DNA of 64,000 nucleotides. Origin: an uncultured cyanobacterium (GTDB taxonomy: Bacteria > Cyanobacteriota > Cyanobacteriia > Cyanobacteriales > CAWCAG01). The translations under genes were made by a program, and so were the position numbers. Where the stretch lies: contig CAWDOD010000011.1 in the NCBI GenBank assembly GCA_963803805.1, forward strand, positions 256,001-320,000, given 5' to 3'. This document shows, piece by piece, positions 1-26,450 of this stretch; within the stretch, counting starts at the first letter, position 1, and each line of letters starts with the position of its first letter. The notes below the pieces were generated by a model. It was not told where the DNA came from. It ran no database searches and saw only the letters and a list, made by a program, of their open reading frames with translations.

Positions 1-1
1 A

Positions 2-439
2 GAGAAAAACTTTAATTTATATATTGATTTAGGAATTTGGAATCGTCAGACCAAATCAGGAAAAGCTTTTGATTCTTCAACTATTTTTATTTTACCTAAT
101 GGCGCGAGAAGAAGTCCTGATGTTAGCTGGATTAGATTAGAAAGATGGAATGTACTAACCCGGAAACAAAAGCAAGGTTTTCCTCCTATCGCTCCTGATT
201 TTGTGATTGAATTAGTAAGTCCAAGCGATCTCAAAAATCAGAGATACGAAGACTTACAGGCAAAAATGCAGGAATATTTAGATAACGGGGTTAAGCTGGG
301 TTGGTTAATCGAACCCCAAGGGAAAACAGTAGAAATATATAGACTTGGGCAACCAGTAGAAGTTTTAAATAATCCTCAAACTCTCTCAGGAGAAGATATT
401 TTACCGGGATTTATTCTAGATTTAAGTCAGATTTTTTGA
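2..439 (+). CDS. Uma2/DUF820 family PD-(D/E)XK endonuclease, array copy 1 (5'-truncated by window edge)
   Basis: The frame is open from base 2 (EKNFNLYIDLGIWNRQTKSGKAFDSST...SPDVSW...PDFVIELVSPSD...GVKLGWLI) to TGA 437-439; the 3' half is nearly identical to the next three copies. Confidence 0.9.
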   Translation, partial: EKNFNLYIDLGIWNRQTKSGKAFDSSTIFILPNGARRSPDVSWIRLERWNVLTRKQKQGFPPIAPDFVIELVSPSDLKNQRYEDLQAKMQEYLDNGVKLGWLIEPQGKTVEIYRLGQPVEVLNNPQTLSGEDILPGFILDLSQIF

Positions 440-450
440 TAGTAAAGAAT

Positions 451-1032
451 ATGGAAGCGATCGCTATTCCTAAAGGATTTAAAGTAACTCCAGAACAATT
501 TGAGCAACTAGCATTCACCGAACAACTGGCACGAATGGAGTTAACTAAAAATGGAGAATTAATTATTATGAGTCCCACTGGAGGAACAGCAGGTAGAAAA
601 AATAGCCGTTTAACCCAGCAACTAAGAAATTGGGCAGATCAAGACGGTACAGGAGAAGTATTTGATTCTTCTACAGTGTTTGTTTTACCTAATAATGCCA
701 GAAAAAGTCCTGATGTTAGTTGGATTAAACTAGAGCGATGGCATCAACTGACTCAAAAACAACAAGATGGCTTTCCTCCTATCGCTCCTGATTTTGTGAT
801 TGAATTAGTAAGTCCAAGTGATCTTAAAAATCAGAGATATGAAGACTTACAGGCAAAAATGCAGGAATATTTAGATAACGGGGTTAAGCTGGGTTGGTTA
901 ATCGAACCCCAAGGGAAAACAGTAGAAATATATAGACTTGGGCAACCAGTAGAAGTTTTAAATAATCCTCAAACTCTCTCAGGAGAAGATATTTTACCGG
1001 GATTTATTCTAGATTTAAGTCAGATTTTTTGA
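451..1032 (+). CDS. Uma2/DUF820 family endonuclease, array copy 2
   Basis: ELTKNGELIIMSP, SPDVSW, PDFVIELVSPSD, KMQEY and LGWLI motifs; ATG 451 preferred over TTG 436. Confidence 0.92.
   Translation: MEAIAIPKGFKVTPEQFEQLAFTEQLARMELTKNGELIIMSPTGGTAGRKNSRLTQQLRNWADQDGTGEVFDSSTVFVLPNNARKSPDVSWIKLERWHQLTQKQQDGFPPIAPDFVIELVSPSDLKNQRYEDLQAKMQEYLDNGVKLGWLIEPQGKTVEIYRLGQPVEVLNNPQTLSGEDILPGFILDLSQIF
457..464. repeat. HIP1 octamer GCGATCGC (example; roughly 40 copies by eye across the window)
   Basis: Also at 1050, 1643, 5263, 11878, 17473, 34095, 46446, 57189 and elsewhere; a hallmark of cyanobacterial genomes. Confidence 0.95.
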
Positions 1033-1043
1033 TAGTAAAGAAT

Positions 1044-1625
1044 ATGGAAGCGATCGCTATTCCTAAAGGATTTAAAGTAACTCCAGAACAATTTGAGCAA
1101 CTAGCATTCGCTGAACAACTGGCACGAATGGAGTTAACTAAAAATGGAGAATTAATTATTATGAGTCCCACTGGAGGAACAGCAGGTAGAAAAAACTTCA
1201 ACCTATATCTAGATTTAGGAATTTGGAATCGTCAAACAAAGCTAGGAGAAGCTTTTGATTCTTCGACTACTTTTGTTTTACCTAACGGTGCGAGAAGAAG
1301 TCCTGATGTTAGCTGGATTAAACTAGAGCGATGGCATCAACTGACTCAAAAACAACAAGATGGCTTTCCTCCTATCGCTCCTGATTTCGTGATTGAATTA
1401 GTAAGTCCAAGCGATCTCAAAAATCAGAGATACGAAGACTTACAGGCAAAAATGCAGGAATATTTAGATAACGGGGTTAAGCTGGGTTGGTTAATCGAAC
1501 CTCAAGGGAAAACAGTAGAAATATATAGACTTGGGCAACCAGTAGAAGTTTTAAATAATCCTCAAACTCTCTCAGGAGAAGATATTTTACCGGGATTTAT
1601 TCTAGATTTAAGTCAGATTTTTTGA
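1044..1625 (+). CDS. Uma2/DUF820 family endonuclease, array copy 3
   Basis: Same motifs; offset 593 bp from copy 2. Confidence 0.92.
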   Translation: MEAIAIPKGFKVTPEQFEQLAFAEQLARMELTKNGELIIMSPTGGTAGRKNFNLYLDLGIWNRQTKLGEAFDSSTTFVLPNGARRSPDVSWIKLERWHQLTQKQQDGFPPIAPDFVIELVSPSDLKNQRYEDLQAKMQEYLDNGVKLGWLIEPQGKTVEIYRLGQPVEVLNNPQTLSGEDILPGFILDLSQIF

Positions 1626-1636
1626 TAGTAAAGAAT

Positions 1637-2218
1637 ATGGAAGCGATCGCCATTCCTAAAGGATTTAAAGTAACTCCAGAACAATTTGAGCAACTAGCAT
1701 TCGCTGAACAACTGGCACGAATGGAGTTAACTAAAAATGGAGAATTAATTATTATGAGTCCCACTGGAGGAACAGCAGGTAGAAAAAATCGCCGTTTGAC
1801 ACAGCGAATTGGCATTTGGACAGATCGAGACGGTACAGGAGAAGCTTTTGATTCTTCGACTACTTTTGTTTTACCTAACGGTGCGAGAAGAAGTCCTGAT
1901 GTTAGCTGGATTAAACTAGAAAGATGGCATCAACTGACTCAAAAACAACAAGATGGCTTTCCTCCTATCGCTCCTGATTTCGTGATTGAATTAGTAAGTC
2001 CAAGCGATCTCAAAAATCAGAGATACGAAGACTTACAGGCAAAAATGCAGGAATATTTAGATAACGGGGTTAAGCTGGGTTGGTTAATCGAACCTCAAGG
2101 GAAAACAGTAGAAATATATAGACTTGGGCAACCAGTAGAAGTTTTAAATAATCCTCAAACTCTCTCAGGAGAAGATATTTTACCGGGATTTATTCTAGAC
2201 TTAAGTGATATTTTTTGA
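1637..2218 (+). CDS. Uma2/DUF820 family endonuclease, array copy 4
   Basis: Same motifs; offset 593 bp; ends LSDIF instead of LSQIF. Confidence 0.92.
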   Translation: MEAIAIPKGFKVTPEQFEQLAFAEQLARMELTKNGELIIMSPTGGTAGRKNRRLTQRIGIWTDRDGTGEAFDSSTTFVLPNGARRSPDVSWIKLERWHQLTQKQQDGFPPIAPDFVIELVSPSDLKNQRYEDLQAKMQEYLDNGVKLGWLIEPQGKTVEIYRLGQPVEVLNNPQTLSGEDILPGFILDLSDIF

Positions 2219-5205: not shown

Positions 5206-6057
5206 ATGAAGGGAACAATCAAGAAATTTTTATTAGGTGCTTCAGTTGTAGTAGGGGCAAGTGCGATCGCAGTTAACCCGTCTTTTGCTGGTAGTTTTAG
5301 TTCCAGCGGCCCAACAACAGTATATGAGTCTTTTGTTGATACTGACGGCAAGACCAAAACTAGAAAAGTAACAGGGGCAGACTTATCAACTATTTTAAGT
5401 GGTGACAGCAGCGCTCCTGGTGGTAACGTTGAGCTTTATGACCAGACAGATGGTTTAACCTTAGAGCAGTTCAAAGAAATCGGCTCAGCTACATTAACAG
5501 CCGATCTTGATGGTAAGATTGTTAACTTTAATAGTCTTACCTACGAAGACTGGTTTGGTACAGGCAGTGGTATCAACGAGAATTATGGGGCGAATAACTT
5601 TGCTAACCAATGGTTTGGTGAGGCTATGGCCAAATACGGCTCAGGCTACAATAGTATACAAAAAGAAGTGCTTTACGGTAAATTAAAATCTAATGGTTTC
5701 CAACGCTTCAGCGACCCTAATTTGGCTTATGTAGGTAAAGATGGGAATACTGTTACTTTCGGTTTAGCTGGCCATAGCAATGCAGGAAATGTACACCCTT
5801 TACTTCAGGGTATGTATGCTAGCGAAGTAGTTAAAGTAAGCTACAAAGGCAAAACAGAATTATTCTATAGCTTTGACAAACCTACAGACTCTGGGCAGTA
5901 CGAAGTTTCTGATGGGACATCCCACGACGGTAACTTTGAATTCTCTTTCCAGTGGGGCGAAGATGATGCAGAGAAAGTACCTGAACCCTCCGCAATTTTA
6001 GGTCTAATCGCTTTGAGTGGTGTTGTAGCAACTAAGCGTAAGCACAATAAAGCTTAA
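5206..6057 (+). CDS. PEP-CTERM (cyanoexosortase substrate) secreted protein
   Basis: Signal peptide; C-terminal VPEPSAILGLIAL...KRKH. Confidence 0.88.
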   Translation: MKGTIKKFLLGASVVVGASAIAVNPSFAGSFSSSGPTTVYESFVDTDGKTKTRKVTGADLSTILSGDSSAPGGNVELYDQTDGLTLEQFKEIGSATLTADLDGKIVNFNSLTYEDWFGTGSGINENYGANNFANQWFGEAMAKYGSGYNSIQKEVLYGKLKSNGFQRFSDPNLAYVGKDGNTVTFGLAGHSNAGNVHPLLQGMYASEVVKVSYKGKTELFYSFDKPTDSGQYEVSDGTSHDGNFEFSFQWGEDDAEKVPEPSAILGLIALSGVVATKRKHNKA

Positions 6058-25865: not shown

Positions 25866-26450
25866 ATGGTTAAACAGTTTGTTGCAATCCAAAAACATTA
25901 TTACACTCCAGAAGAATATCTAGAATTAGAAGCTAAAGCTGAATATAAAAGTGAATATTTAGATGGGAAAATTATTCCTATAACAGGAGGCACTACCAAT
26001 CATAATAAAATCGCTGGTAACTTTTATCGTCAATTTCCTTTAACTATTGCTGGGCAAGATTACGATATTTACATAGGAGATGTGCGCCTCTGGATTCCTG
26101 AATATCGCCACTATACTTATCCAAATATTATGATAGTTGAAGGAGAGACTGTTTATGAAGGGAAAGGTACAACCACAATTACTAATCCCTTAATTATCAT
26201 GGAAGTTTTGTCAAAATCTACCCAACAAACCGATAAAACTTCTAAATTTCGTTACTATCGTTCTCTTCCTAGCTTTCAAGAATATATTTTAGTTGATCAA
26301 TACAGTTATTATGTAGAGCAATATGTAAAGCAAAAAGATGAACAATGGTTACTCCGTGATTATCAAGGAGAAGAGTCAACTTTAGCTTTGGCTAATCTAG
26401 AATTTGAAATTTCTTTTCTAGAGTTATACAGAAGGGTTAGTTTTACTTAA
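25866..26450 (+). CDS. Uma2/DUF820 family protein (different subfamily; PD motif reads PN)
   Basis: EEYLELE...KSEYLDG, GGTTNHN, YTYPN, EVLSKST...DK..KF..Y..LPSFQEYILVDQ. Confidence 0.88.
   Translation: MVKQFVAIQKHYYTPEEYLELEAKAEYKSEYLDGKIIPITGGTTNHNKIAGNFYRQFPLTIAGQDYDIYIGDVRLWIPEYRHYTYPNIMIVEGETVYEGKGTTTITNPLIIMEVLSKSTQQTDKTSKFRYYRSLPSFQEYILVDQYSYYVEQYVKQKDEQWLLRDYQGEESTLALANLEFEISFLELYRRVSFT

Follow-up and report, generated by a model that had tools for sequence, protein, structure and literature searches.

A four-gene Uma2 array in a cyanobacterial genome: homogenized flanks around one divergent helix segment

Introduction

Uma2 proteins (Pfam PF05685, COG4636 or DUF820) are among the largest cyanobacterial protein families of unknown function. 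Tandem duplications of their genes and one run of four were already listed in 2005 (Feder and Bujnicki, 2005; PMC551604), and Makarova, Wolf and Koonin (2009; PMC2701414) counted 114 COG4636-COG4636 pairs and described the family as a 'likely solo toxin', found mostly in 'cassettes of paralogous genes'. Here, we analyze an array of four such genes in an uncultured cyanobacterium (assembly GCA_963803805.1). It lies at the left edge of a stretch of 64,000 nucleotides (nt), in the following called the window, which comprises positions 256001-320000 of the 791-kb contig C11 in a 5.3-Mb genome of 11 contigs. With four same-strand genes and 11-nt spacers, where at least two adjacent paralogs define the term, the array is a paralog cassette in the published sense, and it resembles the Uma2/COG4636/DUF820 cassettes of cyanobacteria and Thermus in its Pfam match, its TT1808-like fold (1wdj) and its PD-EXX-K residues. 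The difference lies in its internal structure: the available portions of the two papers describe no gene conversion, no protected helix and no discrete helix types, and among Creative Commons-licensed articles in PubMed Central and bioRxiv we found none that links Uma2 to gene conversion, mosaic structure or helix types.

BbvCI is a heterodimeric type IIT restriction endonuclease. Systems of this type share with the array the adjacency of paralogous PD-(D/E)XK genes, whose products, in type IIT, differ in recognition. Unlike these systems, the array has no methyltransferase gene among the open reading frames (ORFs) ~8 kb to either side, where Pfam was applied only to the larger neighbors, and the similarity in fold is at the level of the superfamily (Z scores of 4-5.3). 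An evolutionary parallel is provided by the class I genes of the major histocompatibility complex (MHC), for which the available part of PMC1403747 describes that the peptide-binding part keeps its orthology while the rest is homogenized. As in MHC class I, paralogs within one genome are closer to each other than to their orthologs, save in the part that sets, or in Uma2 may set, specificity; the array differs in being a presumed bacterial tandem operon for a nuclease-like protein, and in that protection is confined to one helix face of 16 residues. Gene conversion that spares a functional segment is a well-known, ordinary mechanism.

Links to defense are indirect. Three models of the candidate defense system PDC-S03 in PADLOC match the third and fourth genes of the array (E-values of 1e-12 to 2e-13); these are weak, family-level matches, which suggest that PDC-S03 is built on Uma2-like proteins. 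No defense-island context was seen around the array, and we found no literature on PDC-S03 in the same two sources. In the available parts of the respective publications, Uma2 genes occur inside two Microcystis type III CRISPR (clustered regularly interspaced short palindromic repeats) clusters (PMC11855584), COG4636 is counted among the restriction endonucleases of Tn7 cargo (PMC8649781), and an indel linked to resistance is located 259 bp upstream of a Uma2 gene (bioRxiv 10.64898/2026.07.12.738045).

Array structure

ORF listing and a repeat search reveal four head-to-tail Uma2 ORFs on the same strand with a period of 593 bp, an array that Tandem Repeats Finder, with its longest period of 500, does not report. 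Each copy measures 582 nt including the stop, i.e. 193 codons plus stop, and the identical 11-nt spacer TAGTAAAGAAT separates the stop from the next ATG at all three junctions. The left edge of the window falls within copy 1; the ATG starts of copies 1-4 lie at C11 positions 255858, 256451, 257044 and 257637. In a whole-genome blastn search with one unit, the four array copies are found at 91-100% identity and the next best match at 68%. The array thus consists of exactly four genes, and the rest of the genome contains no silent donor. Its features are as follows, in window coordinates and with the helix types A, B1 and B2 that are described in the next section:

1-439, + strand: Uma2 copy 1 (type A), 3' 439 nt; start 142 nt left of the window, at C11:255858; PF05685 match
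451-1032, + strand: Uma2 copy 2 (type B2), 193 aa plus stop; ORF, PF05685 match, type assignment
1044-1625, + strand: Uma2 copy 3 (type A), 193 aa plus stop; ORF, PF05685 match, type assignment, structure model
1637-2218, + strand: Uma2 copy 4 (type B1), 193 aa plus stop; ORF, PF05685 match, type assignment
11-58, + strand: cassette of copy 1, codons 52-67, type A: FNLYIDLGIWNRQTKS
604-651, + strand: cassette of copy 2, type B2: SRLTQQLRNWADQDGT
1197-1244, + strand: cassette of copy 3, type A: FNLYLDLGIWNRQTKL
1790-1837, + strand: cassette of copy 4, type B1: RRLTQRIGIWTDRDGT
440-450, 1033-1043 and 1626-1636, + strand: 11-nt spacer TAGTAAAGAAT
457-464, 1050-1057 and 1643-1650, + strand (that of copy 1 lies left of the window): HIP1 palindrome GCGATCGC, codons 3-5 of each unit

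The four copies are mosaics. Over 582 nt, they differ at 77 (copies 1 and 2), 51 (1 and 3), 74 (1 and 4), 50 (2 and 3), 37 (2 and 4) and 38 positions (3 and 4), and in the last of these pairs, 32 of the 38 differences fall in gene nt 151-200; the proteins of this pair differ only in the helix described below and in two C-terminal residues. The 3' 240 nt are near-identical in all four copies. Over the 5' 150 nt, near-identity is limited to copies 2-4, from which copy 1 departs with a synonymous divergence (dS) of 0.25-0.35 in the 5' part; copy 1 stands apart throughout the 5' third and in nt 280-340. The divergent segment, hereafter the cassette, spans 48 nt (residues 52-67) and follows the order A-B2-A-B1 along the array. 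All 17 parsimony-informative sites that join copies 1 and 3 against 2 and 4 lie within nt 153-197; outside this interval, six sites join copies 1 and 2 against 3 and 4, and two join 1 and 4 against 2 and 3. Private differences number 35, 16, 4 and 9 in copies 1-4, respectively.

The cassettes are also far more diverged at synonymous sites than their surroundings. Between copies 1 and 3, which are both of type A, dS is 1.13 in the cassette (7.5 of 12.8 synonymous sites), with a nonsynonymous divergence (dN) of 0.07, versus a dS of 0.04 in the 3' part; between copies 3 and 4, it is 1.31 versus 0.02-0.08 in the flanks, although the cassette values are rough and saturated because the segment holds so few synonymous sites (~13).

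The first-pass annotation, made from the letters of the window, had described much of this. Its 'at least four' genes at a 593-bp period become exactly four upon leftward extension and the whole-genome search. Its A-B-A-B order and quoted peptides are correct and can be refined, with copies 2 and 4 belonging to the subtypes B2 and B1. The near-identity that it saw over the 5' ~150 bp and 3' ~260 bp applies to the 3' parts of all copies and the 5' parts of copies 2-4, but not to the 5' part of copy 1, and the sharply divergent segment of ~17 codons narrows to a type-linked stretch of 16. Its view that cassettes of the same class are older than the flanks is borne out by the dS contrast between copies 1 and 3, and its proposal that recombination or gene conversion maintains one scaffold around a single distinct helix finds support in the conflicting site splits (17 versus 6) and in a flank clade with 100% support. 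The placement of this helix ahead of the catalytic PD agrees with the structural model (helix 45-65, PD 87-88). The roles that it proposed, a defense sensor or a hetero-oligomer code, are candidate readings: for the first, there is family-level similarity to PDC-S03 but no defense context, and for the second, relatives in which a single type was found argue against an obligate A:B partnership.

Of the promoter-like sites, one ~28 nt upstream of copy 1 scores best, with 10 of 12 matches, and no terminator-like site was found on the + strand inside the array. These are weak signals, compatible with one operon, and the array is probably a co-transcribed four-gene cassette. The palindrome HIP1, present once per Uma2 unit, occurs 2648 times in the genome versus ~30 times expected from base composition.

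Helix types

Database searches with copies 3 and 4 as queries yielded 233 proteins at 81-100% identity, including the four window proteins. Their residues 51-70 fall into three discrete classes: type A (NFNLY[LI]D[LF]G.WNRQTKLG) in 116 of the 233 proteins, type B1 (NRRLTQQIG.WTDRDGTG) in 104, among them copy 4, and type B2 (NSRLTQQLRNWADQDGTG) in 13, among them copy 2. Alignment positions 52, 53, 55-57 and 62-67 share ~1 bit of mutual information with the type, whereas L54, W61 and G68, which form a conserved skeleton, share none; at no column outside 52-67 does the value exceed 0.34 bit.

To these proteins we added a set of 61 genes from other genomes, i.e. those tblastn hits in 80 loci that are at least 73% identical, full-length, ungapped and free of N, all other hits being dropped. 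Within types, the ratio of nonsynonymous to synonymous differences (pN/pS, each as a proportion of sites) is 0.129 in the cassette versus 0.19-0.23 in the flanks (648 pairs), which makes the cassette the most conserved segment of the gene. A, B1 and B2 are evidently ancient forms, each of which purifying selection has kept conserved in many cyanobacterial genera.

At least five further helix types seem to occur in neighboring clades. Two genes at 68-70% identity to copy 3 (L176:498-1076 in G038, and L075:4001-4579) carry a hybrid-looking helix, with F52 as in type A followed by the B-like RL(C/S)QQLANWAE...TG; it may represent an intermediate or a fourth type.

Flank homogenization

Outside the cassette, the type of a gene leaves no trace. 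Flank-only identity (residues 1-44 and 75-193 of the 229 non-window proteins) is 0.846 for A-A, 0.847 for A-B and 0.855 for B-B comparisons. In a maximum likelihood tree of the 61 genes and the window's four (65 in total), computed without nt 133-222, 25 type changes are required, versus a possible minimum of 2. With shuffled type labels, the mean is 28.9 (standard deviation 2.1), and 14 of 200 shuffles are as low as 25. By contrast, a tree of the cassette only (nt 145-213) requires just 2 changes.

The flanks instead group by genome. The window's four copies form one clade irrespective of type, with 100% support, and the adjacent pairs of the loci L022, L020 and L040 likewise join by genome, with support values of 100, 95 and 94. 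In adjacent pairs, the proportion of synonymous differences (pS) is 0.18-0.20 in the flanks, compared with ~0.55 in unlinked genes, whereas in the cassette it is 0.62 and thus at the unlinked level. Since flanks cluster by genome whatever their type, and cassettes cluster by type, the pattern is that of interlocus gene conversion with one protected segment. Paralogs of one genome cluster against their orthologs and the phylogenies conflict along the gene, as is characteristic of concerted evolution; we regard family-wide concerted evolution by gene conversion, with one segment exempt, as demonstrated.

Fold and position of the cassette

All copies match PF05685 over the whole model, copies 2-4 with 159-162 bits (E ~1e-47) and copy 1 with 157.7 bits, at a gathering score of 27 bits; no NCBIfam family was matched at an E-value of 0.001 or better. 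In total, the genome has 62 Uma2 matches, 60 of them above the Pfam cut-off. One of these further matches, unrelated to the array, lies within the window at 25908-26393 (C11:281908-282393; E-value 1.8e-26).

A structural model of copy 3, based on 118 diverse relatives, reaches a predicted local distance difference test score (pLDDT) of 94.4 and a predicted template modeling score (pTM) of 0.90; it supersedes an earlier model from 65 near-identical homologs with a pLDDT of 65.8, which fell below 50 over residues 51-87. The model has the TT1808-type PD-(D/E)XK fold with its N-terminal subdomain and closely resembles TT1808 itself (1wdj_A; template modeling scores 0.86/0.89, Z score 27.1, root-mean-square deviation 2.0 over 183 residues), and the remaining close fold neighbors are uncharacterized structural-genomics entries. 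It features one long helix (45-65) followed by a strand (68-71), PD 87-88 ahead of strand 89-93, E118 in strand 115-119 and K136 in helix 130-142. All four copies have D88, E118 and K136, and in the 118 diverse relatives these residues are conserved to at least 90%. The characterized PD-(D/E)XK nucleases DrdV, BpuSI, Can2, NucC, BbvCI, NgoMIV and Hjc (Z scores of 4-7) align from model residue 41-46 onwards, which identifies helix 45-65 as the first core helix of the PD-(D/E)XK fold.

The first motif residue in this clade is Asn51 and not the conserved His of the motif H-PD-EXX-K that was defined for the family. This departure is of a known kind, as the accessible part of the same study lists S/T and Q variants of the His (Feder and Bujnicki, 2005; PMC551604). 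We infer the equivalence of N51 and the motif His from its spacing to the conserved L54, L58 and W61. In the model, residues 52-67 make up the C-terminal two-thirds of the first core helix and the following turn, immediately after N51, the putative residue of the active site. Positions 51, 54, 58 and 61, which are conserved, constitute an i, i+3, i+7, i+10 stripe, which is the predicted buried face; the type-specific positions account for the remainder of the helix and for the turn.

Copies 3 and 4 differ at 12 of the 16 cassette positions, with replacements such as F to R, Y to T and L to Q, on an identical scaffold. That the scaffold takes 12-13 changes within 16 residues, with no compensating change elsewhere, implies that the type-specific side chains lie on the surface. 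A complex prediction for copies 3 and 4, each with its own 118-row alignment, scored 0.15 against a mark of 0.32, gave no list of contacts and counts neither for nor against a complex.

Adjacent pairs in other genomes

Among the 80 loci, which come from species-representative genomes, 73 have a lone gene of the subfamily and seven have two adjacent ones. The latter combine A with B1 (four loci), A with B2 (one) and B1 with B2 (two), in both orders and with gaps of 34-1052 nt, and their difference profiles all peak at nt 140-210. At the extremes of spacing, the pair in L022, with a gap of 34 nt, is free of differences over nt 210-570, while that in L014, with a gap of 1052 nt, is 81% identical. 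Metagenome contigs contribute seven more adjacent pairs. One such contig of 2186 nt (L097:356-2186) has a three-gene run A-B2-A, truncated where the contig ends, with gaps of 91 and 102 nt and in the order of the window's first three genes; the alternating arrangement hence also occurs outside the window's genome.

Altogether, our table of adjacent same-strand pairs has 30 entries: 14 from this subfamily, 10 from more distant clades in the genomes of relatives, three from other Uma2 subfamilies in the window's own genome and the three of the window. In 28 of them, 3-15 of the 16 cassette residues differ and the flanks are mostly 85-99% identical (L187, with 62%, is the exception). The loci L008 and L012 hold two additional pairs with the same difference profile. 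On this evidence, the mosaic is a general pattern, found in the adjacent Uma2 pairs of many genomes.

Homotypic pairs are absent (0 of 14) among the non-window adjacent pairs of the A/B subfamily. By the type frequencies, the chance of this is ~2 in 1000 if pairs are independent, which does not hold for relatives and overlapping metagenomes. At the genome level, 14 assemblies have at least two subfamily genes, and only 2 of their 18 gene pairs share a type, compared with a shuffled mean of 6.3 (77 of 5000 shuffles were as low). Judging from these counts, adjacent genes and genomes tend to combine different types.

Interpretation

We consider it fairly likely that this is a homogenized Uma2 array in which a protected patch of one helix sets the recognition of each copy. 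Interlocus gene conversion repeatedly evens out the 5' and 3' parts of neighboring copies, and the 48-nt segment escapes it, persisting in three ancient forms. The type-specific side chains would form a binding patch that fixes what each copy recognizes, the likeliest ligand being a nucleic-acid target or another ligand beside the catalytic center, and an oligomer partner being less likely. Selection would retain non-redundant types, and the high local divergence would in addition stop conversion tracts and thereby give rise to the sharp borders. Lying next to the catalytic center and being, within each type, better conserved than the remainder of the protein, such a surface patch is best interpreted as a site of binding, and the protected helix probably determines what each Uma2 copy recognizes.

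Several points weigh against this. The available portions of PMC551604, PMC3424549, PMC1274311 and PMC2701414 report no activity, target or partner for any Uma2 protein. We infer the surface exposure of the type-specific residues from the tolerance of the scaffold, and the antiquity of the cassettes is read in part from rough, saturated dS values. Two pairs in one genome (L181:501-1639 and L182:489-1777, both G024), the only homotypic ones of the 30, have identical cassettes and flanks that are 97-99% identical; they are plain recent duplicates. G035 has two type-A genes, and at an identity of at least 62% to the query, G003, G040 and G035 have only A-like genes and G026 only B1. The complementarity counts come from related and partly redundant metagenome-assembled genomes and metagenome contigs; in addition, near-identical tandem duplicates may drop out of short-read assemblies, so that homotypic pairs would be undercounted. 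Lastly, a passive recombination barrier alone could yield sharp borders.

The significance of the pattern lies in the family as a whole. The mosaic amounts to a natural mutagenesis screen in which residues 52-67 set paralogs apart, and it points to the likely specificity determinant of Uma2. Copies 3 and 4 form a near-isogenic natural pair, so that a helix swap between them, combined with substrate or partner assays, would be a direct test of the family's function. A bolder extension, which we find rather doubtful, would turn 16 residues, the exposed face of the first core helix, into a portable specificity module family-wide, with a limited number of ancient types riding on freely recombining scaffolds and assembled into recognition repertoires, for example of nucleases with different targets in defense or genome maintenance. 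Breaks made by the nucleases themselves might even drive the heavy gene conversion between copies, as the 'selfish element' idea of 2005 would predict.

That the cassette is instead a passive island of divergence seems unlikely to us. The segment would have separated into its forms long ago and persist only because homologous recombination is unable to start or run in 60%-diverged DNA, and the types would be functionally equivalent, with no selection for several of them. The borders of the unconverted segment do coincide with the onset of high divergence, and conversion is stronger at shorter gene distance (L022 with its gap of 34 nt versus L014 with 1052 nt), as expected of such a barrier. 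It leaves unexplained, however, why the cassette is more conserved within types across genera than the flanks (pN/pS 0.13), why three types persist through as many flank exchanges as the 25 changes in the flank tree imply, why genomes under-share types (2 of 18 versus 6.3 expected), and why all 14 non-window adjacent pairs are heterotypic, although tandem duplication yields homotypic pairs at birth.

We give slightly less credence to a hetero-oligomer code, in which the helix would be a subunit interface and differing neighbors would encode the partners of a heteromeric nuclease, as in the type IIT enzyme BbvCI. Heterotypic neighbors, 11-nt spacers suggestive of coupled, equimolar expression, the hydrophobic stripe of F52, Y55 and L56 in type A and the presence of BbvCI subunit structures among the fold neighbors (6eg7, Z score 5.3; 6maf, Z score 4.0) would all fit. 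An obligate A:B partnership is nevertheless hard to reconcile with neighbors in all three combinations and both orders, with the lone genes at 73 of 80 loci, with the relatives in which a single type was found (G003, G040, G035 and G026) and with the lack of any other protein column that co-varies with type. For these reasons, we prefer recognition of a target or ligand.

An assembly artefact, i.e. dispersed or fewer paralogs that were joined or mis-ordered via the identical 3' 240 nt, is very improbable. The copies do have near-identical stretches of ~240 nt or more in common, and four public read runs of one study, kept as short contigs, do not bridge the array; yet every copy has private differences, from 4 in copy 3 to 35 in copy 1, the period and spacers are exact, the array sits inside a 791-kb contig, and similar runs appear in independent assemblies (A-B2-A in L097 and 13 further adjacent pairs).

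The least credible alternative, which is excluded as far as sequence can show, is an active diversity generator or switch, i.e. a diversity-generating retroelement, shufflon or programmed switch of cassettes by which the helix would be rewritten in place: the likeness to a variable region framed by constant sequence is superficial, since the types are discrete and conserved, only 14 of the 32 differences between the cassettes of copies 3 and 4 fall at adenines, the neighbors include neither a reverse transcriptase nor a recombinase, no inverted repeats frame the segment (one chance-level 12-nt pair exists in copy 1 only) and the genome contains no silent donor or fifth copy. A diversity-generating retroelement in particular was ruled out for want of a nearby reverse transcriptase, a fifth copy and adenine-confined differences. 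Accordingly, two terms of the first-pass annotation have to be given up. The cassette is not 'hypervariable', but comes in three discrete types that are spread over many genera and are under stronger within-type purifying selection than the rest of the protein, nor is it swappable by a device in situ, there being no adenine specificity, no border repeats and, among the neighbors, neither a reverse transcriptase nor the recombinase that it had suggested looking for.

Genomic neighborhood

The array is preceded by an LRR-Roc-COR GTPase gene and by an ankyrin-repeat gene on the opposite strand, and it is followed by genes for a membrane protein without Pfam family and for MgtE. No recombinase, reverse transcriptase or defense-island context was seen among these neighbors. 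In a genome of the same genus, the closest match to the array genes has 58% identity. Homology to this genome ends at C11:255748, 14 nt before the GTPase stop, and restarts at C11:258248, 30 nt past the stop of copy 4, so that the segment without counterpart (C11:255749-258247, up to window position ~2247) is exactly the array. The two flanks of the array are on different contigs of the same-genus genome, beside unrelated housekeeping-type genes. Together with the homology gap, this characterizes the array as an accessory segment at a rearrangement junction.

The GTPase gene, to the left of the window (L001:5366-7762, corresponding to C11:253366-255762), is an intact 798-aa LRR-Roc-COR-A-COR-B (ROCO) gene whose product carries a ~120-aa N-terminal extension. 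In the same-genus genome, it has shrunk to 221 aa, an in-frame remnant in which residues 1-102 are fused to 678-795. Farther downstream, a 283-aa ORF without Pfam family (window 5206-6057) ends in VPEPS, a hydrophobic stretch and basic residues, a C-terminus that we take to resemble a PEP-CTERM sorting signal.

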